A stretch of 64,000 nucleotides of DNA, taken from a virus. The notes beneath the pieces were generated by a model, which saw only the letters and a list, made by a program, of their open reading frames with translations, was not told the origin of the DNA and did not search any database. The stretch lies in IMG/VR virus record IMGVR_UViG_3300042397_000787. One strand, written 5' to 3'. This document shows positions 6,098 through 31,584 of the stretch, one piece after another; the first letter of the stretch is position 1, and each line of letters starts with the position of its first letter. The translations under genes were made by a program, and so were the position numbers.

Positions 6098-6156
6098 GAT
6101 GATTCTCTTTCTTTTCTCTTACTATACCAATATACACGATTCGCAGGGAATGTCAA
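6098..6156 (-). promoter_or_regulatory. Early promoter/leader cassette copy 1
   Basis: TTGACA-TTCCCTGCGAATCGTG-TATATT; leader AGAAAGAGAATC-ATC-ATG. Confidence 0.8.
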
Positions 6157-6359
6157 GCGGTATTTTGAAGAATTCTATTGCGCTTTGTGAGGCTATAACC
6201 ATCTTCGTACCATGGTGCATCGTCTGGTGTGATGAGTTCGGTATAACGAATGCCCGCTTGGACACGCATGTAATTCCAGAACTTACGAGCATCTTCGAAG
6301 TTATCGAACAGCTTGTCCTTAAGGGAATAGTTGTAATAGCGATATTGGACCTTATACAT
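6153..6359 (-). CDS. Hypothetical early protein
   Basis: 68 aa; stop lies inside next TTGACA. Confidence 0.65.
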   Translation of the reverse strand: MYKVQYRYYNYSLKDKLFDNFEDARKFWNYMRVQAGIRYTELITPDDAPWYEDGYSLTKRNRILQNTA

Positions 6360-6418
6360 AACGAATCACTTTCTCTCTGACTTCTATTTCACTATAGCAG
6401 AACCAGTAGTAATGTCAA
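6360..6418 (-). promoter_or_regulatory. Early promoter/leader cassette copy 2
   Basis: TTGACA..GC-TATAGT; leader AGTCAGAGAGAAAGTGATTCGTT-ATG. Confidence 0.85.
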
Positions 6419-6480
6419 CCATTCATTTCAGCTAACCAAGTGATTGATTCATTAGAGTTATTCTTTAGTCGCTACACTCC

Positions 6481-6509
6481 TTTATAACACATGGCAAGTG
6501 ATTCGTCAA
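6481..6509 (-). promoter_or_regulatory. Early promoter copy 3 (GANTC overlapping -35)
   Basis: TTGACG-AATCACTTGCCATGTGT-TATAAA. Confidence 0.65.
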
Positions 6510-6520
6510 GAGAAAAACAT

Positions 6521-6552
6521 AAAAAAGGTCCCCGAGTCGAAACCCGAGGACC
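6521..6552 (-). terminator. Rho-independent terminator
   Basis: GGTCCTCGGGT-TTCG-ACTCGGGGACC-TTTTTT. Confidence 0.85.
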
Positions 6553-6581
6553 AGTGTGTGACCTAGAGAAAGGAAGTAAAA

Positions 6582-6746
6582 CTAGGTCATGATGAAACGC
6601 TGTGGCATACGCTTGTTGATAAAGCTAGTGGCATATTGCTCAACCGCATGCTTGGAACCCTTTCGGTCCGCTACCCAGGAACCGTTAACGTATAGGTCCA
6701 GCAGGTAGGTACCAGGCTTTATCTTCGTAATGGTATAGTCTCGCAT
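6582..6746 (-). CDS. Hypothetical early protein (54 aa)
   Basis: Start MRDYTIT after AGGAGA. Confidence 0.6.
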   Translation of the reverse strand: MRDYTITKIKPGTYLLDLYVNGSWVADRKGSKHAVEQYATSFINKRMPQRFIMT

Positions 6747-6780
6747 GGTGGTTCTCCTAGTGAGGGTTACCGAACCGTTA

Positions 6781-6826
6781 TGATTCGTATTATCTATAAT
6801 ATAACACAAAGGCACCATGGTGTCAA
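6781..6826 (-). promoter_or_regulatory. Early promoter copy 4
   Basis: TTGACA..TGT-TATATT; CGAATCA just downstream. Confidence 0.65.
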
Positions 6827-6972
6827 GTAAAAAATGCGCGGCGGTGCCGAGGAGGAGGGAATTGGCCGAGGATTAAGACCAGGTTATATGGTCGCTAATA
6901 TGCTCTGGTGGCGTGGTCTAGTTCATGGACACTGGAATCTGAATATTATACTAATAGTTAGTGGGATTTACT

Positions 6973-7013
6973 AACCCCAGTTCAACCCAGTGTAACCCAG
7001 TGTCAACCCCAGT
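6973..7013. repeat. Four imperfect 10-11 bp tandem repeats (AACCC(C)AGT)
   Basis: aaccccagttc aacccagtgt aacccagtgtc aaccccagtc. Confidence 0.75.
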
Positions 7014-7158
7014 CTAGTTGTTCTCTCACCACTGGTACAATGACTGTCTTGTCATCTTCTCTTATAGCTTTATGGGTTGCTTCTCTCTCTGTGATATACT
7101 TACCATACTGGTGATTGGTATATCCTAGTTCATTCTCTATAAGATAATTGTTACTCAT
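7003..7158 (-). CDS. Hypothetical protein (51 aa)
   Basis: Start MSNNYLIE. Confidence 0.45.
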   Translation of the reverse strand: MSNNYLIENELGYTNHQYGKYITEREATHKAIREDDKTVIVPVVREQLDWG

Positions 7159-7249
7159 TACACAAGGATGACCAATATAACGATGATTGCTACTACTAAT
7201 GACCATTCTACTGGTCCATAGTCTTTGATGATTTCTTTAATAAATTTAA

Positions 7250-7384
7250 TCAAAATTGATACTCCACCCAATAGTGTGCTGTTTTACCACTGGACCATGT
7301 TACCTTACTACCTCTATATCTCTTATATGGAATAAGAGGTGTTTCGGTTGGTAGTGGTAGTTTCTTCCATTCTTTCTCTGTCAT
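7250..7384 (-). CDS. Hypothetical protein (44 aa, below ORF-track cutoff)
   Basis: Manual translation MTEKEWKKLPLP...WVEYQF. Confidence 0.45.
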   Translation of the reverse strand: MTEKEWKKLPLPTETPLIPYKRYRGSKVTWSSGKTAHYWVEYQF

Positions 7385-7441
7385 ACTGTTATCTCTCTAT
7401 ACAAAAATAATGAAAAATTGTTCATTTCGGCCGTGTGGTGA

Positions 7442-7591
7442 TCATATAATTGGTACACTAATAGAGGTCTTTTGCCATTGCTCTTCACCATTATCCTCTG
7501 ACAATAGCCTGTTCTCCTGTATCTTCTTTACCACTTTACCGGTTTGTTCGTCATACCAGTATTCTATGATTTCTTCACGGATTTTCTTCAT
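7442..7591 (-). CDS. Hypothetical protein (49 aa)
   Basis: Manual translation MKKIREEIIEYWYDEQTG...; GAGGA RBS. Confidence 0.5.
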   Translation of the reverse strand: MKKIREEIIEYWYDEQTGKVVKKIQENRLLSEDNGEEQWQKTSISVPII

Positions 7592-7721
7592 TGTCCTCGG
7601 CCTTCTTCAATGCTTTTGCTGCAATATTGGCACAGGTATATCCGTGTCCATGGCCGTGTGAATGACCGAACTTCTCGATTTCTTTGAGGGCTTGTTCATA
7701 TACCTTCAGCAGTTCGGTCAT
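7575..7721 (-). CDS. Hypothetical protein (48 aa, HSHGHGHG)
   Basis: ATGA overlap with upstream HD gene. Confidence 0.5.
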   Translation of the reverse strand: MTELLKVYEQALKEIEKFGHSHGHGHGYTCANIAAKALKKAEDNEENP

Positions 7722-8167
7722 TTGTTGGGTACCTGGGCTAGTAGTTCAAGATAGAATTGATTATACTTGGCCAGACGGGCGATATCCTTTTCGGTAACAC
7801 CCTTGAGGCGACGGATATCGGTGTTGTGGCGAAGGTCTGACATCTTCACTCTCATGGCATCTTCGTTGGCCATTACCTCTTGCTTGTATTGGTCATAGGA
7901 TTGACCTGGCATCTTGGTGAGTGCGGAGACTGCGGCTAGAACACGTTCGGTGCAACCAATGGCGCGTAGGTCGTCCCAGGTGGTATCGGTATCTTCGATA
8001 ACGTCATGAAGCAATGCGATGCACTGGAGTTCTTCGTCTGTTGTCTTGAGGTAATGCATCACCTTCATTGGGTGAAGGATGTATGGGTTACCACCGCGGT
8101 CAAACTGACCTGCATGGGCATTCGTGGCTAGGACGAGGACTTTACCGAGTAGTTCACCTTTTTTCAT
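7718..8167 (-). CDS. HD-domain small alarmone hydrolase-like (RelA/SpoT hydrolase, Mesh1-like)
   Basis: HAGQFDRGGNPYILHP, ALLHDVIEDT, VKMSDLRHN. Confidence 0.8.
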   Translation of the reverse strand: MKKGELLGKVLVLATNAHAGQFDRGGNPYILHPMKVMHYLKTTDEELQCIALLHDVIEDTDTTWDDLRAIGCTERVLAAVSALTKMPGQSYDQYKQEVMANEDAMRVKMSDLRHNTDIRRLKGVTEKDIARLAKYNQFYLELLAQVPNK

Positions 8168-8222
8168 AATCAAATCTCTTTCTCTATATTATTATAGTAG
8201 ACGATTCGAGACCAAATGTCAA
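8168..8222 (-). promoter_or_regulatory. Early promoter cassette copy 5
   Basis: TTGACA-TTTGGTCTCGAATCGTC-TACTAT; AGAGAAAGAGA leader. Confidence 0.8.
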
Positions 8223-8259
8223 GTAAAAAGGTGAGAAACTTTAGTTCGATAGGAGAAAA

Positions 8260-9252
8260 TTATTTTCCATGCATAGTCCCTGAACCTTTAACACCGGAAA
8301 GGGGATCCGATTGGCTGTTATATTTCATTCTGTGTTGTGCGAACTTTTTACCTTTATAATAAAAGGAAATTGCTGCGCCAGAACGTTCTGTTTTTAAATT
8401 GATATGTTTAGGATCTGCTAGAATGTGTTCATGGTGTGCAGCAGGATCGATGGCATGTGTGGAGTGATTGCCATATGTGGTATGACGTATATGGTTGTGT
8501 CCTGCTTGCTGAAGTGGGGTGGCATGTGCATGAAGAACATGATTTCGAATATGAGTTACCAAGTCTTCATGAGTACCTGAAGTTAAGTGTTTATGCATAT
8601 GTTCTGCAATGCTGTGCAATACATGGGCATTTTGTCGCTTGATTTCCGCATGTGCTTCCGGATTAGCCTTTGCCCACTCTTTACGACTGGCCGCATTTGT
8701 TAGGTTCTTTAGTTCTGGATGTTGTTTTTTGATATTCTCACGGTGTGCAGCCAAAATCTTTTCGCCGCCATGAGTTGATTCCATACCTGGATTAGATACA
8801 GGAACGTGACCGGTGTTACTGTCCGTCACTTTTAGACTTATACCGTGATGTTTTCCATGTTTGTCTGATACCATGACATCAGAGGCGTCTTGCTTTTGAG
8901 TAGAATGAATACCAGTTGATCTATGAATGTCGCCCGGCTTCGAGGTCCAATGAACATGCTTTATTGGATGACCAATTCGCTTTTTAATATCATCAGCCGC
9001 AGCCTTTGCTCTATCATTAATTTTTTTATAGTTCTCGTGGGACATTGTAGACTTTAACTGGTCATGAGCTTCTTTAGGTGAATGTCCGTTTACATCATGG
9101 TGTTTTTCCATGTGGTTGCCGCCATTTAGATGATAGCCAGTTAATAGTTCATGCATAACACCTTTAGTGTTTGCACTAACAGTATTATGGGTCTCTGTGG
9201 CTTCTGATAGATAAAACCAATGTAAATCATTCCACTGGGCAAACGATATCAT
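8260..9252 (-). CDS. His-rich late protein, PD-(D/E)XK-like nuclease with putative capsid-targeting N-terminus
   Basis: MISFAQW...LSEA; ASDVMV...GISLK; AATAAATA upstream. Confidence 0.55.
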   Translation of the reverse strand: MISFAQWNDLHWFYLSEATETHNTVSANTKGVMHELLTGYHLNGGNHMEKHHDVNGHSPKEAHDQLKSTMSHENYKKINDRAKAAADDIKKRIGHPIKHVHWTSKPGDIHRSTGIHSTQKQDASDVMVSDKHGKHHGISLKVTDSNTGHVPVSNPGMESTHGGEKILAAHRENIKKQHPELKNLTNAASRKEWAKANPEAHAEIKRQNAHVLHSIAEHMHKHLTSGTHEDLVTHIRNHVLHAHATPLQQAGHNHIRHTTYGNHSTHAIDPAAHHEHILADPKHINLKTERSGAAISFYYKGKKFAQHRMKYNSQSDPLSGVKGSGTMHGK

Positions 9253-9379
9253 ATTATTCTCCTTGAATACTTATATTTATTCAAGCGAAATTCTTACGCC
9301 GAACCACCATAAATCTACACGAAAGAACCAGCGCCCGTTGTGCTTACCGAAGCCTATACGGAGCATACGGTTGTCGGCG

Positions 9380-9544
9380 TCAAGAGACAGGCGTGAAAAG
9401 GTCATCTAATGCTATCTTCTTGAGGTTGTTGCTTTTCATATCACGAAGAATACTCGCCGCTGGTCCAGCACCGGGCCCGGGCCACTCTCGTTCAAGCCTC
9501 TGCGCACACTCCTCAATAACGGCATCCCTGGCTTCCTTATCCAT
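9380..9544 (-). CDS. Hypothetical protein (54 aa) ending ALDDLFTPVS
   Basis: Manual translation; TAATG coupling to upstream gene. Confidence 0.5.
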   Translation of the reverse strand: MDKEARDAVIEECAQRLEREWPGPGAGPAASILRDMKSNNLKKIALDDLFTPVS

Positions 9545-9960
9545 TAGATTCCTGAGAATGTTACCAGTTGTTTATACCCACGCCACGAAGGGTGCACACC
9601 ATCTGGCTGCACGAATTTGGTACCGATGATGGTATCACCATAACTCTTAGCAATCTCCGTGACGGTCTTGTTCACACCGGGCTTGCAGAATTTGGCATTG
9701 CAAGGAGGCATAATCCAGACGACCTTCAGAGACTTGATACGGTACCGCACCTTGGACAGTTCTTTATAGGTGTTCACACCCTTGTGGTCATTGGTACCGA
9801 GACTGATCACTACGGTCTTAGCCGCTAGTGGTGTGGTACCCCACCGCTTGTTCCATTGCCAGGTGTTGAAGCCACCCTTGGCATAGGACACGCACTCGGT
9901 AGGTGCGAACATCTTGGTACCTACAGCGATGGAGTCACCTATAATCAAACATTCAAGCAT
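9544..9960 (-). CDS. SGNH/GDSL hydrolase
   Basis: IIGDSIAVG, SLGTND, DGVHP. Confidence 0.8.
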   Translation of the reverse strand: MLECLIIGDSIAVGTKMFAPTECVSYAKGGFNTWQWNKRWGTTPLAAKTVVISLGTNDHKGVNTYKELSKVRYRIKSLKVVWIMPPCNAKFCKPGVNKTVTEIAKSYGDTIIGTKFVQPDGVHPSWRGYKQLVTFSGI

Positions 9961-10135
9961 TTTGTAGCCTTTCTAGTTCCATAATTGTTCTTTGTAATGA
10001 CTGCAATTCAGCACCCATATCCATTACACCATGTGCGTCACGGTTCTGTAGGAATACCTCAGCCATGTCCCAGCACTTCTCCTCACGCCAGCGAAGATTG
10101 GCAATCGCTTCTTGTTCTTTGGTTCTCATTGTCAT
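9953..10135 (-). CDS. Hypothetical protein
   Basis: Overlapping neighbours. Confidence 0.55.
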   Translation of the reverse strand: MTMRTKEQEAIANLRWREEKCWDMAEVFLQNRDAHGVMDMGAELQSLQRTIMELERLQNA

Positions 10136-11103
10136 TGTCCTAATGTTACATATGAATTAGTGGCATCAAGATATGTATAGACAACGGAAAAATCATTTAC
10201 CAGCATGGAGCCGTTACCTGCTTGCACTTCCACACCCAATTCTACACCCTTCACGTACCATTCAGGCCTAATGTCAAGATCATCATCCAATACGTCAAAT
10301 ACCTTAACCCAGTCAATTGTTCCCATGGTGATTTTTGTCTTGTTGTCCTCAGGTGTGATGATTACCATCTTCTGTCCTTCTGGATTGGTAGAGACTAGAA
10401 TATCATACAGCACACCGTTCATGGTAATCTGGTGATTATGCGACCCTGGTTGTGTACCGAAATAGTTCACGGGATCTGACCAGTATAGAATATGGTCACT
10501 AGGATGGATATTGAACGTGATTTCCGCTGCAATCTTACCAGTATCATCGAACAAAAACAGGTCCGACATGAGGTTCATATATTTCAGGTCACCCGATAGC
10601 ATAACATCAAAGGTTTCTGAAAATTTGGTAATATTCTTGACCTGTGATAGGGCATTTTCGGTATTATATCCCGTGAGACCTAGGGTGGTCTTACCAAAGG
10701 CTACCGATGGGTAGCCGTATACCACAGCACCGTTACCATATGGTTGGTCAGGATAGTCCCAAGTAAATAGAGTACCGTCTGGCATCGTTAGCTTGTTATA
10801 GGTAACAGTCTGGGTATAGTCCTTACCATATACCATACCGAACTTGTCTGCACCCCAATTGTTATTCACTGCGATATACATGCCACTCTGGTAATAATCT
10901 ACCCCATTCTGGCGCACCGATAGATTGGTGACCAGTTTCCCGGTGTTGTCAACGACGGCAGGTGTTGCAACCGCAGCGGGTGATATGGGTGCAAATGCTG
11001 GAACTTGTATGATGGCTGGCGCTTGACTATCGCTGCCTCCACCACACGCTGCCAGTCCTAAGACCATAGCACCCAGTGCAATCCCATTCAAAGCGTTACG
11101 CAT
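10132..11103 (-). CDS. Lipoprotein with GH12-like (endoglucanase) domain
   Basis: Lipobox LAAC; NNNWG, YGYPSV, GVELGVE motifs. Confidence 0.6.
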   Translation of the reverse strand: MRNALNGIALGAMVLGLAACGGGSDSQAPAIIQVPAFAPISPAAVATPAVVDNTGKLVTNLSVRQNGVDYYQSGMYIAVNNNWGADKFGMVYGKDYTQTVTYNKLTMPDGTLFTWDYPDQPYGNGAVVYGYPSVAFGKTTLGLTGYNTENALSQVKNITKFSETFDVMLSGDLKYMNLMSDLFLFDDTGKIAAEITFNIHPSDHILYWSDPVNYFGTQPGSHNHQITMNGVLYDILVSTNPEGQKMVIITPEDNKTKITMGTIDWVKVFDVLDDDLDIRPEWYVKGVELGVEVQAGNGSMLVNDFSVVYTYLDATNSYVTLGQ

Positions 11104-11105
11104 GG

Positions 11106-11546
11106 TCAGGCCTCGTCCCAATCCTCATACATCTCGGTAATACCCCATTGCTCGTTCAAATCATCTGGGATATTGGACAGGTCATCGGGGTCGATATCAA
11201 ACGACACCTCTTCGCCGTTGACATATTGACCAACGAAGGATGACTCGAAGTATTGGCCGTTGACGGTGAATCCCTGTTCCATGAGTTCATCATAGAAGGC
11301 ACAAGGTGGTGACCATGCGGTCTCAAATCCTACACAAACTGCCTCTGGCATCAAACGGTCGATGACCTCACCATTGGAGATATCCCACTTGGTACCCCAA
11401 GATTCGACGGCATCATCCCAGCTCCATTCAGCCAGAGGCACAAACGTCTGAAACAGATTGCCATCACGGACAGCCTGCTCAAACTTGTCAATCATTGCGG
11501 GATCCGCATGTTCTACGGTAACAGTATTTGAACACCAATTAGGCAT
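11106..11546 (-). CDS. YubB/DUF1281-like ferredoxin-fold protein
   Basis: MPNWCSN, WGTKWD, FETAWSPP. Confidence 0.75.
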   Translation of the reverse strand: MPNWCSNTVTVEHADPAMIDKFEQAVRDGNLFQTFVPLAEWSWDDAVESWGTKWDISNGEVIDRLMPEAVCVGFETAWSPPCAFYDELMEQGFTVNGQYFESSFVGQYVNGEEVSFDIDPDDLSNIPDDLNEQWGITEMYEDWDEA

Positions 11547-12012: not shown

Positions 12013-12023
12013 AATAAAACTCC

Positions 12024-12194
12024 TCAATCAAAAAAATTACCAAGAGCCCAACGGTAGTTGAGTATCGAACCATTTGCCATCCAGGCACCCTGTGGCAGGC
12101 TACCGAACGTCTTGTTGGCTTTTTCCATTGCTTCACCCATACGGGCGGCTTCAACGACAATCTTCTTACCGTTTGCTTCAAATTGATATTTCAT
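12024..12194 (-). CDS. Hypothetical early protein (56 aa, not in ORF track)
   Basis: MKYQFEANGKKIVVEAA...; directly follows cassette leader. Confidence 0.7.
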   Translation of the reverse strand: MKYQFEANGKKIVVEAARMGEAMEKANKTFGSLPQGAWMANGSILNYRWALGNFFD

Positions 12195-12256
12195 AACGAA
12201 TCACTTTCTTTTCACTGACTACTATCTAACAATAGCAGGATTTACCAGAATGTCAA
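12195..12256 (-). promoter_or_regulatory. Early promoter/leader cassette copy 6
   Basis: TTGACA..GC-TATTGT; AGTCAGTGAAAAGAAAGTGATTCGTT-ATG. Confidence 0.85.
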
Positions 12257-12264: not shown

Positions 12265-12501
12265 TTAATAGAGGTTGCGAATATCTTCTATGTTGAAGAG
12301 GGCCTGACGAACGGCAATCTTAGCAATCGAAAACTGGTGCGTAGGAGCATCACTCGCTTTTGGGTAATATTCCATCAGAACGTTGTTTACGCAAGCGTTG
12401 ATGTCACTGGAACCAATCTCTTCGGCGTCATCAAACATCCACAGGACATGCTCGGCTACAACACGGTCAAACTTCTCAACGTTTTCTAAAATATCAATCA
12501 T
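12265..12501 (-). CDS. Hypothetical early protein
   Basis: Follows cassette leader. Confidence 0.7.
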   Translation of the reverse strand: MIDILENVEKFDRVVAEHVLWMFDDAEEIGSSDINACVNNVLMEYYPKASDAPTHQFSIAKIAVRQALFNIEDIRNLY

Positions 12502-12563
12502 AACGAATCACTTTCTCTCTTCTGACTACTATCTAACTATAGCAGATTCTGCGGTAATGTCAA
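12502..12563 (-). promoter_or_regulatory. Early promoter/leader cassette copy 7
   Basis: TTGACA-TTACCGCAGAATCTGC-TATAGT; AGTCAGAAGAGAGAAAGTGATTCGTT-ATG. Confidence 0.85.
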
Positions 12564-12570: not shown

Positions 12571-12777
12571 TTACACCACAGCAGGAAAGGCTTTCGCAGC
12601 AAGGGCAGCATCAGCCACTGGCATCGCCAGCACGGCTTCGTTGGCATAGAGCCGCATCAAACCATCGGGCTTCAAGAGCCATACTGCTTTCTGAGGCTCT
12701 GGGTTGTTGTACCAGACCCGAACAGGGACATCATCAAGAACGACAACTAGGTTAAGGGCAGGCTGGGCAACTATCAT
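12571..12777 (-). CDS. Hypothetical early protein
   Basis: Follows cassette leader. Confidence 0.65.
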   Translation of the reverse strand: MIVAQPALNLVVVLDDVPVRVWYNNPEPQKAVWLLKPDGLMRLYANEAVLAMPVADAALAAKAFPAVV

Positions 12778-12839
12778 TTCGAATCACTTTCTCTCACTGA
12801 CTACATTATTAAATATAGCAGATTCGCAAGGAAAGTCAA
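12778..12839 (-). promoter_or_regulatory. Early promoter/leader cassette copy 8
   Basis: TTGACT-TTCCTTGCGAATCTGC-TATATT; AGTCAGTGAGAGAAAGTGATTCGAA-ATG. Confidence 0.85.
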
Positions 12840-15257: not shown

Positions 15258-15504
15258 TAGGAAATACCAATCCAAATTGTTCAATCATCACATCACGGAC
15301 ACCCTCACGGTCAACCGAATCCAGTGCAAGGTTCTCATAGCCAACGCGGTTGGCGTAAATGTCGAAGGCGTCAAGGATTTGACGCGAGGTCGCACCCATA
15401 TCATACACACCACCTTCGGCGTAAAAGTCACCGACATAGACTAGGAAGTTACAAATCTCACGCACAACGCCTTGAATATTCATACCAACAGGTTCGACTC
15501 GCAT
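15247..15504 (-). CDS. Hypothetical early protein
   Basis: Start MRVEPVG after AAGGAG. Confidence 0.65.
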   Translation of the reverse strand: MRVEPVGMNIQGVVREICNFLVYVGDFYAEGGVYDMGATSRQILDAFDIYANRVGYENLALDSVDREGVRDVMIEQFGLVFPNEA

Positions 15505-15561
15505 AACAATCTCCTTTTTCACTCTATATTCTCATAATAGCAGATTCGCTAGGAATGTCAA
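15505..15561 (-). promoter_or_regulatory. Early promoter cassette copy 9
   Basis: TTGACA-TTCCTAGCGAATCTGC-TATTAT. Confidence 0.8.
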
Positions 15562-15849: not shown

Positions 15850-15900
15850 AACTTCTCACTTTCTATAATCACTTATAGACGATTCGCAGGCAAATGTCAA
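15850..15900 (-). promoter_or_regulatory. Early promoter cassette copy 10
   Basis: TTGACA-TTTGCCTGCGAATCGTC-TATAAG. Confidence 0.8.
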
Positions 15901-16937
15901 GAAAATAAATGGTCCAATGTGACAGGTACAGCCTTCTCTGGCTTTTTTGAAAATACCATAATGCTCTCATCGGTATTGATATCTACCTTCGCACTGGGTC
16001 TGGTTATATTCTTTAGCGTAATGGACTCCACATAATAGAAGCCGAGACTTTCTGCAATGGCTCTAGTATCAGCGCATAACTTATAATTCAGGAAGTCCTT
16101 GATGTTGATTAGCATCTTGCCATCATCAATCAGATATTTTTTGATGTTTTCCAGAGTGGGTCTTAGATATGTATCTAGCCATTCCTGATATGTAGTACCA
16201 GGCTTAAATGACTGGTCACCAATTTTATAATCTTCTAGACTGAAATACGGCGGACTGCTAAATGCTACACCGATGGTGTTCTCCCACTCTGGAACAAATG
16301 TTTGAGAACCATGACACCGAATGTCATACTTTGCAGAGGTGCCATTCACTGTATTGTAGTCAGTGGCCATTTGGTTGAGGCGTTCTACTAGCAGATTGTT
16401 GGGGTCAGTGCCGTAATATTCCACTCGGTTTCTTAGGGACGAAAGCATCCTAACGCCCCAACCACACGAGAAGTCATAGTATTTACCATTGATATTATAC
16501 CTGAATAGGATATCGTCAACCGACTTAATTGGATAATTAGACGGCTTCATTGCAACACCACCGCCACTAAGCCGTAATGCGGCCTCAAAGTTCTCTATAT
16601 CAGAGTTGGTCTTTGGATATACCTTGTCACTAGAAAGCACCCTACTCCAGAAGTATCGAATCAAATCCATAGATTCGAATACTTCTTCTATTGACCAACG
16701 TGGAGACTCCAGCTTCACCTTGGCCATAAGGTCTTTTACATAGTAACTAGTAATGGTGCTTATGATAGTGCTACCATCATATACTGCTTTTAGGTTTTTG
16801 TTAACCAGTTCAAAATCAGGCTTTTCGTAATATGCGGCCTTCAATTCTAAGCACTTATCTTCTGGCAAATCATACCAGTGGTCGGTATTAAGTGTCTTGC
16901 CTAAATGGGTAATTTGGTATTTTTTACTTTTTCCCAT
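15897..16937 (-). CDS. Amino (N4C/N6A) DNA methyltransferase with C-terminal clamp-like motif
   Basis: YDFSCGWG (motif I), SSPPYF (motif IV); ends TLDHLFS. Confidence 0.8.
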   Translation of the reverse strand: MGKSKKYQITHLGKTLNTDHWYDLPEDKCLELKAAYYEKPDFELVNKNLKAVYDGSTIISTITSYYVKDLMAKVKLESPRWSIEEVFESMDLIRYFWSRVLSSDKVYPKTNSDIENFEAALRLSGGGVAMKPSNYPIKSVDDILFRYNINGKYYDFSCGWGVRMLSSLRNRVEYYGTDPNNLLVERLNQMATDYNTVNGTSAKYDIRCHGSQTFVPEWENTIGVAFSSPPYFSLEDYKIGDQSFKPGTTYQEWLDTYLRPTLENIKKYLIDDGKMLINIKDFLNYKLCADTRAIAESLGFYYVESITLKNITRPSAKVDINTDESIMVFSKKPEKAVPVTLDHLFS

Positions 16938-16952: not shown

Positions 16953-17309
16953 TTAGGCAGCCTTCTGGTACGGTTTGTTCCACTGTCCAGCATTCACGTT
17001 AACGTACCAACCGACACAAAAGTAGTCGATTTGGGCGTTGCTGGTGTCGTGATTGCCATCATTCATGGCAGTCTTGATTTCTTCGAGGAAAGCCAGTTCC
17101 TTACCTTGATAGCTATCAGCCAACCAATACAGATTGACCTGGCTGTAGCCACGGTCATTGTTGGCAAGGTCTAGAGGACCTGACTTGAGGTTGAGAACAA
17201 GGGTGCTGTAGTTGCGAACCGCAAGACTACCCTTCATATTATATTTCTTGAGGACTGCTTTTACCTTAGGGGCAAGACGAGCCTTCTCACTTTGGTTCAT
17301 ATAAGCCAT
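16953..17309 (-). CDS. Conserved phage early protein
   Basis: Follows cassette leader; IDYFCVGWYVNVN motif. Confidence 0.7.
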   Translation of the reverse strand: MAYMNQSEKARLAPKVKAVLKKYNMKGSLAVRNYSTLVLNLKSGPLDLANNDRGYSQVNLYWLADSYQGKELAFLEEIKTAMNDGNHDTSNAQIDYFCVGWYVNVNAGQWNKPYQKAA

Positions 17310-17371
17310 AACGAATCATTCCTTTCTCACTGACTACTTATTAAATATAGCAGATTCGTGAGGAAAGTCAA
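17310..17371 (-). promoter_or_regulatory. Early promoter/leader cassette copy 11
   Basis: TTGACT-TTCCTCACGAATCTGC-TATATT; AGTCAGTGAGAAAGGAATGATTCGTT-ATG. Confidence 0.85.
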
Positions 17372-18663: not shown

Positions 18664-19137
18664 TCAATTAGGTATCTTCTGCGTTGCACACCACTTGTGG
18701 TTCAACCCCACTTCGCGACCGTATGCTTCAATCTCCCAAGGAGCATCGAAATATGCATCTTCCTTACCCTTAGGCTTCCATATCTGGCCCATCCACTTGC
18801 TGTAGATTTTGAGACCACCACGAGCAGCCACCGCATGACCAGTCTGAAGTTCGTTCTTGGCATGTTGCTTGACATGGACCATTTCGTGACCGAGAACCTT
18901 GATCATCTCATCGATGTCTTGGTTCTTGAGACCAATGGTGAACCACCGTGGGTTCTTGGTGCCGTCCTCGTCAACGCACTCGCCCTCTAGGTCAAAGTTT
19001 TTCCAAACTTCGATATCAAGGGTGAGATTGCGGACCATGCGTGGGTCCATTAGTTGAGCGGCGAAGAATTCTGCTGCCTCGATCAACTTCTGCTTATCAG
19101 CGCGACGACCAATCAAACCTGTAACTGAAATATCCAT
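18664..19137 (-). CDS. Zincin-like metalloprotease
   Basis: HEMVH...PWEIEA. Confidence 0.7.
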   Translation of the reverse strand: MDISVTGLIGRRADKQKLIEAAEFFAAQLMDPRMVRNLTLDIEVWKNFDLEGECVDEDGTKNPRWFTIGLKNQDIDEMIKVLGHEMVHVKQHAKNELQTGHAVAARGGLKIYSKWMGQIWKPKGKEDAYFDAPWEIEAYGREVGLNHKWCATQKIPN

Positions 19138-19191
19138 AATAACCTCTTTCGCTTATAGACTCACTATAAGCGATTCGTGACCAAATGTCAA
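19138..19191 (-). promoter_or_regulatory. Early promoter cassette copy 12
   Basis: TTGACA-TTTGGTCACGAATCGCT-TATAGT. Confidence 0.8.
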
Positions 19192-26159: not shown

Positions 26160-26583
26160 TTTCTTTTGTTGCCTTATACAGCATGACATTCGCTTCTCTA
26201 AACATCAATTCGGTAATGTCCCAGTTAAACGTATCTTCTCGGTCAGATTTATAACAAATGACCTTCTTGATGCCGCGCTGGATGATGCTCTTGGCGCACT
26301 CGTTGCACGGCATCAAAGGTACATACATTGTGCAACCCTCAACCGACATGGGAGAGTTGTCTAGTGCATTGCGCTCGGCATGAGCCACAAACAGGTGCTT
26401 GGTGGGTCGGTCTTCGTAGCGTTTTGCCAGGTCCTTGACGCCACGCGGAAACCCATTGTAGCCTATTGAGATAATACGATTGCGGTCATCCACAATAACT
26501 GCACCAACTTTGGTGCGAGGATCATACGACCATTCGCCAATATGGTCGGCTAGGTCAAGAAACCTCTGACACCATTTAGACAT
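26152..26583 (-). CDS. cd: dCMP deaminase
   Basis: HAERNA, PCNEC, GYNGFPRG. Confidence 0.92.
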   Translation of the reverse strand: MSKWCQRFLDLADHIGEWSYDPRTKVGAVIVDDRNRIISIGYNGFPRGVKDLAKRYEDRPTKHLFVAHAERNALDNSPMSVEGCTMYVPLMPCNECAKSIIQRGIKKVICYKSDREDTFNWDITELMFREANVMLYKATKEND

Positions 26584-26686
26584 TCAACTGAAACTCCAAA
26601 TCACAGTTATCATGGCAATCAAAATCAGAATACCGAAACATCCTGATGCAGTCAACCCATCCCACATTGCTCGTTGTCGAGGATGA

Positions 26687-26899
26687 TTAGTCATAATCAA
26701 CACCTTCATCTTGCTTGCGACCCATATAGTGGTCGTCGCTTACGCAATGAAACTGTGCCTGGAGTTTGCTATTGATAATGGTGCGAGTGACATCACCCGC
26801 GAACTTTTCACATTGCTCCTTAGATGCAGTCTCGTAGACATCCTTGGCCACAAATTCGCCCTCTTGCGTGAACAAAAATACTATAAGCCAATAACTCAT
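26687..26899 (-). CDS. Hypothetical protein
   Basis: 70 aa ORF. Confidence 0.55.
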   Translation of the reverse strand: MSYWLIVFLFTQEGEFVAKDVYETASKEQCEKFAGDVTRTIINSKLQAQFHCVSDDHYMGRKQDEGVDYD

Positions 26900-27102
26900 T
26901 TCACAACTCCATACAGAAGGATGGCGGTAATGAAACCATTAACTACCATCAGAGGTTTATCTTGCATCTTATATGCTGCGTAGCCCCAAGCGGCGGCACC
27001 GATGACCGATAGGATCAGGTCTACCTGGTGAAACTCAAATGCCCGACAAGTGGCAGCAAGGATGACACACGCGGTACCGAACCATTTAATAATCTCAAGC
27101 AT
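26896..27102 (-). CDS. Small multi-TM membrane protein
   Basis: Hydrophobic; start MLEIIKW. Confidence 0.6.
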   Translation of the reverse strand: MLEIIKWFGTACVILAATCRAFEFHQVDLILSVIGAAAWGYAAYKMQDKPLMVVNGFITAILLYGVVK

Positions 27103-27244
27103 ATTTTTCTTCTTCCAACATAAGTGCAATACCAGCGATGAACATCATCATACCAAAAGCGGCTTGCAAGGCAAAACGAAGAAAACTAGCATCTTCAGGA
27201 ACACACATCACAAACAGACCGGCAAACAACAAAACATATTTCAT
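27095..27244 (-). CDS. Small two-TM early protein (49 aa, not in ORF track)
   Basis: MKYVLFAGLFVMCVPED...; follows cassette leader. Confidence 0.65.
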   Translation of the reverse strand: MKYVLLFAGLFVMCVPEDASFLRFALQAAFGMMMFIAGIALMLEEEKYA

Positions 27245-27305
27245 AACGAATCACTTTCTTTTCTCAGCTTATAATCTACTATAGCATATTCTGAGAAAAT
27301 GTCAA
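27245..27305 (-). promoter_or_regulatory. Early promoter/leader cassette copy 13
   Basis: TTGACA..GC-TATAGT; GAGAAAAGAAAGTGATTCGTT-ATG. Confidence 0.85.
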
Positions 27306-27625
27306 GCGGTAATTTCATCAAAACCAAACGTAGCACAACGGAACAGTTTTCCGTCTACCTCGAGGATGTCGCCTACTGACATCGAGGAGCAGGGACCGAG
27401 TTTCTCAACCGTAGCACCTTCCCAAAGATTCATGGCAGCGAATGCTTCTTCCATATCATTGGTATCAACGTTAGCAACGTGGGCGTAATACTGGAAGTTC
27501 TCAGTCTTGAAGGGCGACATCGGCCACGAACGGTCAAAATACGCTTTGATGCGGTCACTGGTTTCGCCGTTATTTACAGCCGCGATTTCAGCATCGGTCA
27601 GTTGAATTTGGTACACCTTAATCAT
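27302..27625 (-). CDS. YodL-like domain protein
   Basis: KVYQI...SMSVGDILEVDG..FGF. Confidence 0.65.
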   Translation of the reverse strand: MIKVYQIQLTDAEIAAVNNGETSDRIKAYFDRSWPMSPFKTENFQYYAHVANVDTNDMEEAFAAMNLWEGATVEKLGPCSSMSVGDILEVDGKLFRCATFGFDEITA

Positions 27626-27687
27626 AACGAATCACTTTCTCTTTTCTGTCTACTATTACATCCTAGCAGATTCGCAGGGAAAGTCAA
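27626..27687 (-). promoter_or_regulatory. Early promoter/leader cassette copy 14
   Basis: TTGACT-TTCCCTGCGAATCTGC-TAGGAT; AGAGAAAGTGATTCGTT-ATG. Confidence 0.85.
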
Positions 27688-27695
27688 GTGCTAAT

Positions 27696-27845
27696 TTACC
27701 AATGATGAATGACATTTGCCACAAGAAAAATGTTTGCGATAATGGCCTGACAAATCAGAAAGGTCCGAATCCATGCTATCTTGTCGGATTCGCTATTACA
27801 CGGAGAGGCTTTTTCACCTAAGGCTTTTGACCATATTCGCCACAT
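27696..27845 (-). CDS. Small membrane protein typical of T4-like phages (49 aa)
   Basis: MWRIWSKALGEKA...VANVIHHW. Confidence 0.65.
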   Translation of the reverse strand: MWRIWSKALGEKASPCNSESDKIAWIRTFLICQAIIANIFLVANVIHHW

Positions 27846-28162
27846 TATCCTATTAACGAGCCCCCGGCTTTCTTTCTGGCCTTATCAATGGCTTCCCTGG
27901 TCTTAACGTCTCTAATAGACTTTGAGCCATATTTTTCCGCGACCGGTGTGTTGGGGTTCTGTTCTGCAACTCGGCTCATAACTTCTTTGAAGTGGTCTGG
28001 CACCTTGCCGCCGCCATCTGAACCAGAAGCATGAGCAAAATTCATTTGAAAAATTTGATGTAATTGAGGATTATCAGCAACGAATTGCTTCATTTCCTCG
28101 TATGACATCTTGGTTTCCCATTGCTCTTCCGTTTCAGGATTATAAAACTCATATATTGGCAT
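27845..28162 (-). CDS. FmdB-like conserved T4-like protein
   Basis: Start MPIYEFYNPET; longer ORF start lies inside a tRNA. Confidence 0.65.
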   Translation of the reverse strand: MPIYEFYNPETEEQWETKMSYEEMKQFVADNPQLHQIFQMNFAHASGSDGGGKVPDHFKEVMSRVAEQNPNTPVAEKYGSKSIRDVKTREAIDKARKKAGGSLIG

Positions 28163-28177
28163 ATTAACCTCGTTTAA

Positions 28178-28260
28178 TGGTAGGCACGGCGGGACTCGAA
28201 CCCGCAAGGTTTCCCGACGAATTTTAAGTCCGTTGCGTTTACCAATTTCGCCACGCGCCC
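28178..28260 (-). tRNA. tRNA-Leu(TAA)
   Basis: Cloverleaf with long V arm, CCA. Confidence 0.93.
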
Positions 28261-29147
28261 AAATTCTGACCCCATGTGGTGTCAGTCATTTCGTAGTAGA
28301 CATAGTTATCAACTAACGTCTTATTTAGACCCAGAGAAACAAGCCAGTCTGAGTAAGTTGATTTACTATCACCCATCATTTTTCTGACTTGCCGGTGTAT
28401 ACCATGTGTAGGACTGTTTATACTCAAACAAAATTGTATTTGTTCATTTACGTATTCATCTACATTACCATCTATGCTCAAATGATCCAATACACTACAT
28501 ACAGCATACTCTGGCGAATCCAGAAGGTCATCGTCTACAAAAAAGTAATAATAATGCCATTCTGCCATTGGAATGATGCCATCATCCTGCATAAAAAGAT
28601 ATTCAAACAACGGATGCTCTATCGCAGTCTTTACATAAGACGTTGTAGCAGCAAACGGAGCCTCAAGCACCCCGGGATGTCTTCTAGGTGCAACCATACC
28701 AGTTTTAGCGGCAATAAAATTTGTCCACTTTCTTGGTAGATACATTTCACTTCGTTCTTCTGGGTAAATGTATCTGCCATTACCATGTTTAAATGGCCAC
28801 TCATCCAGATTAGTAGGACGGACAAAAATGTTTTTGCAGTCAAGCACAAGTACCGTATCATCCAGAGATTGTGCGGCTGTAGTCAACTTCAACATCTGTT
28901 GTCTGCGCCACCCAAAAGTAAACGGTTGATCAAAATGTAAATAATTCTCACGTTTAGAAAACGCTAGATTAAGTTTGTGTCGGGTATAATACGGAGCCAA
29001 AATGTTATGCCATTCTTCTGGTGTTAAGGATTCATCCTCAACTGTAATCCAATGGCGACATGGCTTCTCAATAAACTTATCAATTGAGTGGGCCTGAAGT
29101 AGAAGGTCTTGAATATCCCTCTCACAGGCAATAGTAACTATATCCAT
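28239..29147 (-). CDS. DUF6492-like (GT-A-like) protein, paralog 1
   Basis: GWRRQQMLKL, LVLDCKN; stop inside tRNA-Leu. Confidence 0.65.
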   Translation of the reverse strand: MDIVTIACERDIQDLLLQAHSIDKFIEKPCRHWITVEDESLTPEEWHNILAPYYTRHKLNLAFSKRENYLHFDQPFTFGWRRQQMLKLTTAAQSLDDTVLVLDCKNIFVRPTNLDEWPFKHGNGRYIYPEERSEMYLPRKWTNFIAAKTGMVAPRRHPGVLEAPFAATTSYVKTAIEHPLFEYLFMQDDGIIPMAEWHYYYFFVDDDLLDSPEYAVCSVLDHLSIDGNVDEYVNEQIQFCLSINSPTHGIHRQVRKMMGDSKSTYSDWLVSLGLNKTLVDNYVYYEMTDTTWGQNLGAWRNW

Positions 29148-30031
29148 TAGCAGTCCATATATTGTTTAACTAATTCATCATTCAGCCCAAGTGATAGAAG
29201 CCATTCTGTATAGAACATACCAGTTTTACTCGGAAGGTTTTCTCTCACGGTTTTATGTAAGCCATGAGTTGGGCTGTTAATATTCAGGCATCTTTCAACA
29301 TCGTTTCTGATACTCTGATCATACCGTCCCTCTATCATATCAAAGGGACTGATTGCATTACATATAATATCTTTTTCTTCTGGTAGTTCATCAGGATCAA
29401 CATAGAACATATACGTATGAAACTCCGAGTTTGGAGTAACATCTTGATTTAGAAAGAGTGCTTCCAAATCAAAGTCTTCTGCCATTTGCTGAACTATTTT
29501 CTTCTCAAAGACAAATGGTGTTTCTAACAAACGACCAAACTTATCTGGTATTTGTTTACCAGAAATCTCACTGAAATATAATAGCCATCCTTGTATGATA
29601 TCATGGTTAGTACCAGTGAAAATTGTATCTCTAGTCAGATATGCACCATTACCATGCTTTACTGGCCAAGAATATAGGTCAGTGGGTCTAACAAATAAAT
29701 TTTTAGAATCTAGAACTAATGCATGGTCGCTTATAACATGATCACTGGTGGTAAGAAGTTTTAAGTATTGTTGCCTTCTCCAGCCATGCCCAAATCTACC
29801 CCAATCCGCAAAGACAGCATCCAAGGTGGGGTCTCTACGATAAGTATTTAATCTAAGGGTATGCTTTGTATAATACGGCGACAAGATATCTTGCCATTGA
29901 TCAAGCGAAAGATGTGTATCTTCTACCGTGACGAAATGTGTTATAGGCTTCTCAATAAACTTATCAATTGAATGTGCTTGTAGAAGAAGGTCTTGAATGT
30001 CTCTTTTACAAGCAATAGTAACTAAATCCAC
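29147..30031 (-). CDS. DUF6492-like (GT-A-like) protein, paralog 2
   Basis: GWRRQQYLKL, LVLDSKN; tandem duplicate. Confidence 0.65.
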   Translation of the reverse strand: MDLVTIACKRDIQDLLLQAHSIDKFIEKPITHFVTVEDTHLSLDQWQDILSPYYTKHTLRLNTYRRDPTLDAVFADWGRFGHGWRRQQYLKLLTTSDHVISDHALVLDSKNLFVRPTDLYSWPVKHGNGAYLTRDTIFTGTNHDIIQGWLLYFSEISGKQIPDKFGRLLETPFVFEKKIVQQMAEDFDLEALFLNQDVTPNSEFHTYMFYVDPDELPEEKDIICNAISPFDMIEGRYDQSIRNDVERCLNINSPTHGLHKTVRENLPSKTGMFYTEWLLSLGLNDELVKQYMDC

Positions 30032-30044
30032 AATTATCTCCTAA

Positions 30045-30122
30045 TGGGGTGAATGACGGGACTCGAACCCGCGACATTCGGCATCACAAGCCGACACTCT
30101 AACCAACTGAGCTACATCCACC
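30045..30122 (-). tRNA. tRNA-His(GTG) with G-1:C73
   Basis: Cloverleaf, CCA. Confidence 0.95.
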
Positions 30123-30143
30123 ATACTCAGGAATACTTATAAC

Positions 30144-30232
30144 TGGCGGAACATCAGGGAGTCGAACCCTGTATACCCTTTAGAGGTATTACGCATTAGC
30201 AGTGCGTTGCATTACCGTCCTGCCCATGTTCC
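30144..30232 (-). tRNA. tRNA-Ser(GCT)
   Basis: Long V arm, G73, CCA. Confidence 0.92.
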
Positions 30233-30238
30233 TAAAAT

Positions 30239-30313
30239 TGGTAGCCCGAACGGGTTTCGATCCCGCTTCTCCGCCTTGAAAGGGCGGTGTCCTAGCCACT
30301 AGACGACCGGGCC
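30239..30313 (-). tRNA. tRNA-Glu(TTC)
   Basis: Cloverleaf; T-loop ATCGAAA. Confidence 0.9.
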
Positions 30314-30316
30314 ATT

Positions 30317-30391
30317 TGGAGCGGAAGAGCGGATTCGAACCGCCGACCATCTCGTTGGCAACGAGAAGCTCTACCACTGAGCTACTTCCGC
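30317..30391 (-). tRNA. tRNA-Gly(GCC)
   Basis: Canonical. Confidence 0.95.
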
Positions 30392-30395
30392 ATTA

Positions 30396-30473
30396 TGGAG
30401 CGCCGAGCCGGATTCGAACCGGCGGTTTTACGGATTTGCAATCCGTTGCGATGGACCACTCCGCCATCGGCGC
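30396..30473 (-). tRNA. tRNA-Cys(GCA)
   Basis: U73, CCA. Confidence 0.92.
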
Positions 30474-30474
30474 T

Positions 30475-30546
30475 TGGTACCAGCAGGTGGTAATGATCCA
30501 CCCAAACTAACCTTATGAGAGTCAGTCGAACACCTGTTCTACTGGT
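30475..30546 (-). tRNA. Aberrant tRNA(CAT), possibly elongator Met
   Basis: ACCAGTA/TGCTGGT-A-CCA; mini D arm GAAC-AGGT-GTTC; loop CTCATAA; T arm GGTGG-ATCATTA-CCACC. Confidence 0.65.
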
Positions 30547-30547
30547 G

Positions 30548-30623
30548 TGGTGCGAATAACAGGAATTGAACCTGTGACCTTTCCCTTATCAGGGGAATGC
30601 TCTACCATCTGAGCTATATTCGC
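30548..30623 (-). tRNA. tRNA-Ile(GAT)
   Basis: Canonical. Confidence 0.95.
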
Positions 30624-30629
30624 ATCTTA

Positions 30630-31073
30630 TCAATTAAATAACTTTTCTAAGTCCTTGAGAGGAATTATGCAGTTACTATATTGATTTGTTAAATCTGGTC
30701 CTTTTTTAAATATCAATCTTATTTTTGGAAATGATAGAATATCACATATAATATAATTCATAGTGGAGGAATGTTCTATAGCTTTTTCTTCATTAAAAAC
30801 TCTTCCGCCGCCAAAATTTATAGATTGCATAAATCTACATCCAGACTTTGTAAAACATTTCTGTTCATATTTCTGGCCGTCGGTCAAACTAACATGATCA
30901 TGACCTCTGGCATTTACATATTGCAAATCTGGAAACCATTTCTCAATCATTATTTCCAGAAATTTTGAGGCTATTCTTCCATCTTTAAACATTCTATTCA
31001 ATTCAGACTCTTGTAGTATATCAAATGATATATTTTCAAGTTCAAAATAATATGTTTTGTCAAATACTATCAT
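30630..31073 (-). CDS. AT-rich PD-(D/E)XK-like endonuclease inserted in tRNA array
   Basis: GHDHV...YEQK motif; start MIVFDKT after GAGG. Confidence 0.5.
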   Translation of the reverse strand: MIVFDKTYYFELENISFDILQESELNRMFKDGRIASKFLEIMIEKWFPDLQYVNARGHDHVSLTDGQKYEQKCFTKSGCRFMQSINFGGGRVFNEEKAIEHSSTMNYIICDILSFPKIRLIFKKGPDLTNQYSNCIIPLKDLEKLFN

Positions 31074-31087
31074 TATAACCTCAATAT

Positions 31088-31163
31088 TGGTGGACACTTT
31101 GGGGTTCGAACCCAAGACCTACAGGTTAAAAGCCCGTTGCTCTACCTACTGAGCTAAGTGTCC
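31088..31163 (-). tRNA. tRNA-Lys(TTT)
   Basis: Canonical. Confidence 0.95.
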
Positions 31164-31169
31164 GTGAAA

Positions 31170-31245
31170 TGGTAGACGATGTAGGATTCGAACCTACGAC
31201 CTAAGGATTAAGAGTCCCGCGCTCTACCGACTGAGCTAATCGTCC
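31170..31245 (-). tRNA. tRNA-Lys(CTT)
   Basis: Canonical. Confidence 0.93.
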
Positions 31246-31253
31246 ATTAAATT

Positions 31254-31328
31254 TGGTAGACGAGGAGGGACTCGAACCCCCAACCTAACCGTTATGAGCG
31301 GTCGGCTCTACCATTGAGCTACTCGTCT
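31254..31328 (-). tRNA. tRNA(CAT), probably Ile2
   Basis: ACCGCTCATAACGGT arm typical of Ile2, A73. Confidence 0.85.
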
Positions 31329-31524
31329 ATATGTAGACCCGAACACGATCGGAATCTACAGGAGCACCGACCACTCGACGCTCTATGTAGTAATAATCTA
31401 TGAAATGATCGCCGTCACGGGTATACACACCGTGGGCAGCCCGCGCTTCATCTTCAGATGCATACACACCCAACAGCAACGAACCTTCGTAATCCCATTC
31501 ACCTAACAATGCAAAAACTTCCAT
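31327..31524 (-). CDS. Hypothetical early protein
   Basis: Follows cassette leader; LLGVYASEDEA. Confidence 0.7.
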   Translation of the reverse strand: MEVFALLGEWDYEGSLLLGVYASEDEARAAHGVYTRDGDHFIDYYYIERRVVGAPVDSDRVRVYI

Positions 31525-31584
31525 GACGAATCACTTTCTCTCTGACTATATTCTCATAATAGCTGATTCGCCGGTAAATGTCAA
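31525..31584 (-). promoter_or_regulatory. Early promoter/leader cassette copy 15
   Basis: TTGACA-TTTACCGGCGAATCAGC-TATTAT; AGTCAGAGAGAAAGTGATTCGTC-ATG. Confidence 0.85.

Follow-up and report, generated by a model that had tools for sequence, protein, structure and literature searches.

The stretch of DNA analyzed here, referred to as the window, comprises 64,000 nucleotides of the IMG/VR virus record IMGVR_UViG_3300042397_000787. The element in question is a short word with the core GANTC, in the following called the box, which occupies fixed positions in a repeated family of sigma70-type early promoters between positions 6098 and 31584. Window positions 102–64000 correspond to bases 1–63899 of the 103.6-kb virus record, which is rated about 59% complete and has a GC (guanine plus cytosine) content of 42.5%. 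Every long open reading frame (ORF) of the window lies on the minus strand, and the window contains 23 tRNA genes. The phage encodes a T4-type DNA polymerase (gp43) with cyanophages (cyanomyophages) as nearest relatives at 49% identity, the protein RegA (PF01818, 156 bits), a class I ribonucleotide reductase, a primase and an endolysin. The promoter-bearing region holds a T4-like mixture of early genes for an ATP-dependent ligase, two AMP-binding enzymes, a nucleotidase, a kinase, an HD protein and a methylase-like protein; the early ORFs mostly carry no annotation. In T4 itself, small early genes are preceded by numerous strong sigma70 early promoters that are almost identical to one another, and RegA is present as well; both features are shared with the phage studied here. 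We know of no methylation word embedded in the T4 early promoters. The phage DNA was found again in many lake-water metagenomes. Searches with the DNA of the early region and of one promoter cassette, for near and for distant relatives, gave no match among cultured phages. The nearest cultured relatives of NrdA were mixed (an Alcaligenes phage and Pelagibacter podophages) and gave no host signal.

The promoter consensus TTGAC(A/T)-N16/17-TANNNT, postulated in the original prediction for this DNA, was borne out. It matched the window 25 times, compared with 3.7 matches expected, and a count of 25 was reached in none of 100 shuffled sequences. All matches except one were located on the minus strand (24/25), and 14 fell between positions 6098 and 31584. 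Thirteen of these 14 are credible intergenic promoter/leader units of the sigma70 type, with -35 elements starting at 6156, 6418, 6826, 8222, 12256, 12563, 12839, 15561, 17371, 19191, 27305, 27687 and 31584. The cassettes read CTTGACW-N16/17-TAnnnT and so have the sigma70-type -35 and -10 elements, with a spacer in the range of 16–18 nt, of promoters that depend on the cofactor GcrA and the methylase CcrM. Two subtypes were distinguished. Subtype A has a 16-nt spacer ending in ..CGAATCTGC-TATAnT and a conserved leader; subtype B has a 17-nt spacer, TTTGGTCnCGAATCGnn, and a leader unlike that of subtype A. Further copies lie at 64.5–80 kb, past the end of the window. The transcription start was predicted 7 nt after the -10 hexamer, and all box offsets are given relative to this predicted start. 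The promoters and the related matches are as follows.

6097–6156, minus strand: promoter and leader; -35 at 6156–6151, -10 TATATT at 6134–6129, ATG at 6097; spacer box CGAATCG with GAATC at 6142–6138 (-20 to -16); leader box AGAATCA with GAATC at 6105–6101 (about +18)
6359–6418, minus strand: promoter and leader with GGTTC in the spacer instead of the box; leader TGATTCG with GATTC at 6367–6363 (about +18); ATG at 6359
6746–6826, minus strand: promoter with a different spacer; CGAATCA (TGATTCG on the other strand) at about +6, GAATC at 6786–6782
8167–8222, minus strand: subtype B promoter (TTGACATTTGGTCnCGAATCGnn, 17-nt spacer); GAATC at 8207–8203 (-20 to -16); leader without box
12194–12256, minus strand: cassette with degenerate spacer box (AAATC); leader TGATTCG with GATTC at 12202–12198 (about +21)
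12501–12563, minus strand: full cassette; spacer AGAATCT with GAATC at 12549–12545 (-20); leader TGATTCG with GATTC at 12509–12505 (+21)
12777–12839, minus strand: full cassette; GAATC at 12825–12821 (-20); TGATTCG with GATTC at 12785–12781 (+21)
15504–15561, minus strand: cassette promoter; GAATC at 15547–15543 (-20); leader without box (GGAGATTGTTATG); GAGTC just inside the ORF
17309–17371, minus strand: full cassette; GAATC at 17357–17353 (-20); TGATTCG with GATTC at 17317–17313 (+21); head of the operon with the methylase-like gene
19137–19191, minus strand: subtype B promoter; CGAATCG with GAATC at 19176–19172 (-20); GAGTC at 19162–19158 directly after the -10
27244–27305, minus strand: cassette with degenerate spacer box (GAATA); leader TGATTCG with GATTC at 27252–27248 (+20)
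27625–27687, minus strand: full cassette with -10 TAGGAT; GAATC at 27673–27669 (-20); TGATTCG with GATTC at 27633–27629 (+21)
31524–31584, minus strand: full cassette; spacer CGAATCA with GAATC at 31569–31565 (-20); leader TGATTCG with GATTC at 31532–31528 (+18)
26583–26655, minus strand: consensus match without GANTC and without cassette features
44122–44174, minus strand: sigma70-type match inside an ORF, outside 6098–31584; GAATC at 44159–44155 (-20 to -16)

All spacer boxes are located at -20 to -16. The leader boxes start at +18 to +21 and lie within +18 to +25, the box of the 6826 promoter is found at +6, and two promoters hold an additional GANTC at -6 to -2. GANTC was thus found within about 40 bp of the predicted start, either near -20 or between +2 and +30, and off the -10 element. 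The leader copy is inverted relative to the spacer copy (CGAATC ... GATTCG). The original prediction had counted 15 promoters, each with at least one GANTC. Thirteen proved credible and all 13 hold at least one such site; the fourteenth match, at 26655, has none and is probably not a member of the family, and a fifteenth was not found in the range. Ten promoters had been said to carry GAATC ending 3 nt before the -10. Nine of these lie in the range (6156, 8222, 12563, 12839, 15561, 17371, 19191, 27687 and 31584), while the tenth corresponds to the match at 44174 outside it. The eight copies of TGATTCG placed 2 nt before the ATG were all recovered (6418, 12256, 12563, 12839, 17371, 27305, 27687 and 31584). 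Likewise, the promoters at 3774, 43658 and 52639 contain no GANTC in their spacers, as had been stated; the one at 52639 has GAATC directly after its -10.

Two side observations concern the promoter inventory. At window positions 6480–6510 (minus strand) the sequence CTTGACGAATCACTTGCC directly follows a terminator-like hairpin and T-run, and a -35-like TTGACG overlaps CGAATCA there. This TTGACG may be the fifteenth site of the original prediction; a convincing -10 was not seen at it. Furthermore, metatranscriptome contigs from separate studies end 2–16 nt from the predicted starts of the 12563 and 15561 promoters (window positions 12519–12520 and 15511–15525), and one chimeric contig joins 12520 to 15524. 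These ends hint weakly at genuine 5' ends, or else reflect how the repeated cassette was assembled. The metatranscriptome contigs span early genes of relatives and do not allow starts to be mapped.

The conservation of the box was followed in four sister genomes with ligases 91–93% identical, one of them 171.6 kb long and rated 100% complete. Together with the genome of the window they form the clade, and the five genomes were analyzed jointly. Of their 84 unique promoters, 41 have a GANTC that begins at exactly the same offset, -8 from the hexamer, and 33 have one that begins at +29 to +32 from it. The information content of the spacer amounts to 1.0–1.5 bits on CGAATC, compared with 0.04–0.57 upstream of it and 0.6–0.95 on the next three bases. 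Apart from the box, no block between -35 and -10 is conserved across the five genomes. The 31 distinct promoters with a spacer box combine it with 23 different upstream spacer halves and eight different downstream trinucleotides; the box itself reads GAATC in 29 of them and GATTC in two. Moreover, orthologous genes with 70–95% identity in their first 240 coding bases have swapped promoter flanks, sometimes including the subtype, and retained the box. The orthologues of the 12563 promoter, for example, display three different spacer flanks in the sisters, with GAATC in all of them. Judged by this comparison, the GANTC box is a real, base-exact promoter element under selection.

As a side observation, a third fixed position of GANTC was noticed in six of the 84 unique promoters, where GAATC ends 2 nt upstream of the -35. 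Examples are window coordinate 78931 (past the window end) and, in oriented coordinates of three other genomes, G001:153706, G002:47403 and G003:38302. This GAATC stands where the orthologues have ATACC or ATAAT.

The leader copy was even more uniform than the spacer copy. In the five genomes 36 of the 37 unique leaders with any GANTC hold exactly TGATTCG, 28 in the sense orientation and eight on the opposite strand. The opposite-strand word, CGAATCA in the RNA, occurs in two unrelated contexts, one of which is the +6 position, far from the start codon. At the +6 position of the 6826 promoter three sister genomes preserve the 7-mer, although the 3' flank diverges. Since TGATTCG is kept in either orientation, it is read as duplex DNA and not as RNA. 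This bears on the alternative that the leader copy acts in the mRNA, either as GUGAU(UC) pairing with the 3' end of 16S rRNA in an extended Shine-Dalgarno interaction or as a RegA operator in ..GAUUCGUUAUG, with GANTC being incidental. Such an explanation would fit the presence of regA in the phage, other phage start regions that read TGATT-ATG or TTGTTATG, and the unstructured, purine-rich leaders, which resemble ribosome-loading regions. However, the inverted word in eight unique leaders destroys GUGAU and preserves the duplex 7-mer, the word at +6 is remote from any start codon, and the spacer box, which is not transcribed, is left unexplained. A RegA operator would be a strand-specific RNA signal over the start codon, and the inversions and the +6 copy contradict this; in this respect the leader word differs from the T4 RegA start regions. 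An action in the mRNA is therefore highly improbable. A structured RNA was rejected as well, because the leader RNAs fold worse than shuffled controls (z-scores +0.75 to +1.9).

In the genome as a whole GANTC is depleted. The comparison of genome and promoters proposed in the original prediction revealed no genome-wide enrichment, with 300 sites observed and 376 expected, as opposed to the fixed sites of the promoters. Among 16 interrupted palindromes GANTC, GGNCC and CCNGG were the three most depleted. In two clade genomes the observed/expected ratio of GANTC was 0.72 (z -5.1) and 0.74 (z -6.2) in coding DNA and 1.42 and 1.19 in non-coding DNA. Both GAWTC and GASTC are depleted; hence the 5-mer class GANTC is the target. 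An intergenic excess of more than 1.5-fold with a coding deficit has been described for CcrM-bearing Alphaproteobacteria, and a weaker bias for other Proteobacteria (Gonzalez et al., PMC3973325). The clade thus shows the combination of coding deficit and intergenic excess that is typical of CcrM-type genomes. The related lineage without the box, which we call the sister lineage (gp43 76–80% identical, GC content 39–43%, no box in 79 unique promoters), gave ratios of 0.91 and 0.96 in coding and of 0.99 and 0.91 in non-coding DNA. Box and coding depletion are both present in the clade and both absent from the sister lineage, and together they mark the clade.

The depletion could in principle reflect a HinfI-type restriction enzyme cutting GANTC in the host, in which case the phage would shed its sites and the promoter copies would be constrained leftovers of a duplicated cassette. 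The depletion of GANTC, GGNCC and CCNGG agrees with this idea. On the other hand, more than 400 sites are left per genome, which would make such an avoidance ineffective, and non-coding GANTC is enriched rather than merely spared. Leftovers would neither hold a fixed position through the turnover of their flanks nor stay one 7-mer. We regard restriction avoidance as very improbable.

The orthologous promoters of the sister lineage (loci L270–L327) read TTGACT-TTTnTnCCnTTTnGGG-TAGAAT. The segment TTTnTnCCnTTTnGGG is a conserved spacer of its own, preceding the unusual -10 TAGAAT at the place where the clade has CGAATC. More distant relatives have the skeleton of the cassette and no box. These observations are relevant for a further alternative, according to which the box is intrinsic to the core promoter and the host polymerase itself contacts it via sigma region 3 or the beta-prime zipper beside an extended -10. 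The box would then be a lineage flavour with neither a separate reader nor methylation. It adjoins TGC-TATAnT, an extended -10 context, the conserved block of the sister lineage (GGG) occupies the same place as if this spacer segment were a hotspot of promoter tuning, and the box-less skeleton in more distant relatives would also be accounted for. Such an element explains neither the same 7-mer downstream of the start in either orientation nor the GANTC depletion in coding DNA, and we consider it improbable.

A search of IMG/VR for TTGACA-N-GANTC-N-TATAAT revealed no global peak at -20 among the 117 matches listed. Relatives found via the ligase were discarded for the comparison of the box, because they are mostly jumbo phages with another cassette (TTGACA-ATAAATSS...TATAAT) and little informative. 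These jumbo lake-phage contigs (L011, L020, L026, L042 and L060) share the ligase and repeat an early cassette of their own, GG-TTGACA-ATAAATSSnnTTGGnnn-TATAAT-..GTATAGTCAA..AAGGAG. Two promoters of L060 combine a GAATC immediately behind the -10 with a GACTC shortly ahead of the ATG.

Word and positions were then compared with the GcrA/CcrM system. The best GcrA site is TGATTCG and the broader motif is YGAKTCK; in the GcrA regulon the sites cluster tightly near -20 and more loosely over +2 to +30, and nearly none falls on the -10 (Haakonsen 2015, PMC4647560). Peaks at -20/-30 and +8/+18 were reported in another study (Wu 2018, PMC5887438). In sequence, the promoters of the phage resemble the GcrA-activated, CcrM-methylated promoters of Caulobacter crescentus in their sigma70-type -35 and -10, in the placement of GANTC (about -20, +2 to +30, or both), in a leader word identical to the top GcrA motif, and in the scarcity of GANTC within genes combined with its enrichment between them. 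They differ in that the spacer copy is mostly AGATTCG and in that the sites are fixed to the base across the family, while those of Caulobacter are scattered. Furthermore, they lie on the genome of a virulent phage.

From these data we infer GcrA as the reader, methylation of the sites and an alphaproteobacterial host. Such a host would have both GcrA and CcrM and would belong to Alphaproteobacteria other than the Rickettsiales. In this model the host sigma70 RNA polymerase would transcribe the early genes from promoters that gained a duplex-DNA word, in one copy or in two. Its core is GANTC, usually within GATTCG, with the spacer copy at -20 to -16 and the other copy at about +6 or at +18 to +25 in the initial transcribed region. 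Host GcrA, bound to the polymerase, would recognize the CcrM-methylated GANTC and aid open-complex formation. The boxes would serve as elements of strength or of host state for immediate-early transcription, and stray GANTC within genes would be selected against. We tentatively consider GcrA/CcrM the best single explanation of the boxes, with a confidence that falls just short of even. The original prediction, which had early transcription tuned to host GcrA and methylation, is therefore supported in part: the selected DNA words, the GcrA-like positions, the leader motif and the CcrM-like GANTC bias speak for it. It is possible, and somewhat doubtful, that the clade has wired its immediate-early promoters to the epigenetic cell-cycle reader of the host as a whole, with methylated boxes at -20 and about +20 that recruit or activate GcrA-loaded RNA polymerase and with stray genic GANTC removed.

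Several results weigh against GcrA as the reader. The sites had been predicted to match the extended GcrA motif, and this is true for 36 of the 37 leaders. In contrast, of the 31 spacer boxes only 11 fit YGAKTCK; 20 miss its Y (AGATTCG 18, AGATTCT 2). The first base of AGATTCG is, on the other strand, the T of the TG of the extended -10. Among the genomes compared, only a narrow clade has the box, and the sister lineage lacks it. Some cassette promoters lack it in all sisters, and in one genome a box was lost by two substitutions; hence the box is advantageous and not obligatory. The first 50 kb of the T4-like Caulobacter phage Cr30 contain no fixed GANTC in about five recognizable early promoters, which have the T4-style sequence GTTTAC(T)-N17-TAnAGT. 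In this part of Cr30 (L120, 1–50000) 251 GANTC sites were observed and 295 were expected from a Markov model (0.85). Finally, when cultured alphaproteobacterial phages were scanned with a GcrA matrix in a published study, the sites did not cluster, while CtrA boxes were found and validated (PMC9437464).

The sole pointer to Alphaproteobacteria is a two-piece transfer-messenger RNA (tmRNA), detected in two clade genomes with the alpha-type model RF01849 at 71.8 and 75.9 bits (cut-off 50); the beta model gave 35.5 and 46.4 bits and the cyanobacterial model 25.5 bits. Its tag is ANDNVAFAGYALAA and begins with ANDN. The sister lineage has a related tmRNA with the tag ANDNVAFALAA, for which the alpha and beta models scored 55.7 and 53.1 bits, respectively. 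Neither tag was found in an exact search of 185,579 species genomes. Since the tmRNA is common to the box-less lineage and its tags occur in no species genome, it is inherited within the phages and is a weak host marker. The core promoter of the clade, CTTGAC-N16/17-CTATAnT, resembles the Sinorhizobium meliloti consensus CTTGAC-N17-CTATAT, but also that of Escherichia coli. A phage homologue of GcrA, for which the original prediction had suggested a search, was not found with PF07750 in the five clade records, one of them 100% complete, by a search that can overlook weak matches and did overlook the methylase.

No CcrM-class methylase was found among the clade genes. The methylase-like gene of the early region is the following.

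15897–16937, minus strand: methylase-like protein P0001; motif I DFSCGWG, followed by motif IV SSPPYF

P0001 has a 140-residue N-terminal part of unknown kind and GTDPN between the two motifs. Motif IV resembles an N4-cytosine-type signature. The order of motif I before motif IV and the SPPY are unlike the beta class of CcrM, and P0001 was thus rejected as writer of the boxes. It is conserved in the sisters and absent from a 92%-complete genome of the sister lineage. A link of P0001 to the box was also dismissed, since copies with 85–91% identity occur in many jumbo phages without the box, and distant homologues in low-GC phages with AAGGAGG-type ribosome sites are likewise box-less. The homologues comprise 889 metagenomic, unnamed proteins, and the gene appears to have moved horizontally, given the 85–91% identical copies in unrelated lake phages. 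A search of its sequence against solved structures gave nothing useful.

In the absence of a CcrM-class enzyme on the phage, the sites, if methylated, must be methylated by the host. CcrM of Caulobacter is present only briefly during the cell cycle. This and the missing phage writer are a difficulty for all models that need methylated virion DNA. They concern above all the timer of the original prediction, in which the methylated DNA would be on at entry and its replicated copies off: it requires methylated virion DNA, yet no writer is encoded. We consider such a timer improbable.

The box could also be the operator of another DNA-binding protein with contacts at -20 and again within the initially transcribed segment. 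This might be an early phage protein specific to the clade, for example a repressor of the early promoters, or a host protein that has nothing to do with GcrA. A phage-encoded partner is expected to leave its sites in one narrow clade and not in the sister lineage, as observed, and strand-independent words of 6–7 bp, here arranged as an inverted pair of spacer and leader copies, are typical of protein sites. The majority of the early ORFs is unannotated and could include such a protein, and a second promoter class of the phage has a covarying inverted repeat in the spacer, as if spacer-embedded sites were a habit of these phages. This explanation leaves open why all four GANTC variants are depleted in coding DNA and why GATTC can replace GAATC in the spacer box. 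It reduces the exact fit to the published GcrA word and zones to coincidence, and no candidate protein was identified. Overall, an operator of this kind is rather unlikely, though clearly to be reckoned with.

Whatever the reader, a base-exact, strand-independent 7-mer combined with clade-specific depletion of genic GANTC constitutes a clean and testable regulatory element. If GcrA is the reader, these phages would exploit a bacterial epigenetic transcription cofactor via cis sites alone, the onset of infection would be coupled to the cell cycle of the host in Alphaproteobacteria that abound in the environment, and the box could predict the host class of uncultured phages from their sequence only. 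Were the immediate-early promoters wired to the cell-cycle reader as described above, an infection could begin efficiently only where the cell-cycle or methylation state of the host cell is right. No phage regulon based on GcrA/CcrM would have been described before, and it would be a cis-only counterpart of the 'lytic deferment' phages with CtrA boxes (Mascolo 2022, PMC9437464). In those phages, too, sites of a host cell-cycle regulator lie in phage promoters, where they tie phage gene expression to the host cell cycle (PMC9437464). They differ from the clade in the regulator and its site (TTAA-N7-TTAA), and they are cultured siphophages for which the control was shown experimentally. As cited in PMC9437464 and PMC3556154, phiCbK-like Caulobacter phages encode a GcrA homologue and Sinorhizobium phages encode CcrM-like methylases; compared with these accounts, the clade has cis sites and no detectable gene for GcrA or a CcrM-class enzyme. 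A search of the literature for GcrA-type boxes in phage promoters retrieved no such description. A positive case would therefore add something new to the literature, as GcrA sites have already been sought in cultured alphaproteobacterial phages with a negative outcome (PMC9437464).

The second sigma70-type promoter class (GGGTTGACW..ACAC..) was found at window positions 52611–52639 and 38592–38620 on the minus strand, in front of the primase and of a tRNA block. Its spacer contains a 5-bp inverted repeat adjoining the -10, which is also seen in the sister genomes G001 and G002. The arms read ACACC/GGTGT, CACCC/GGGTG, CACCA/TGGTG and ACACT/AGTGT. The changes between the sisters are compensatory, which suggests an operator or a hairpin.

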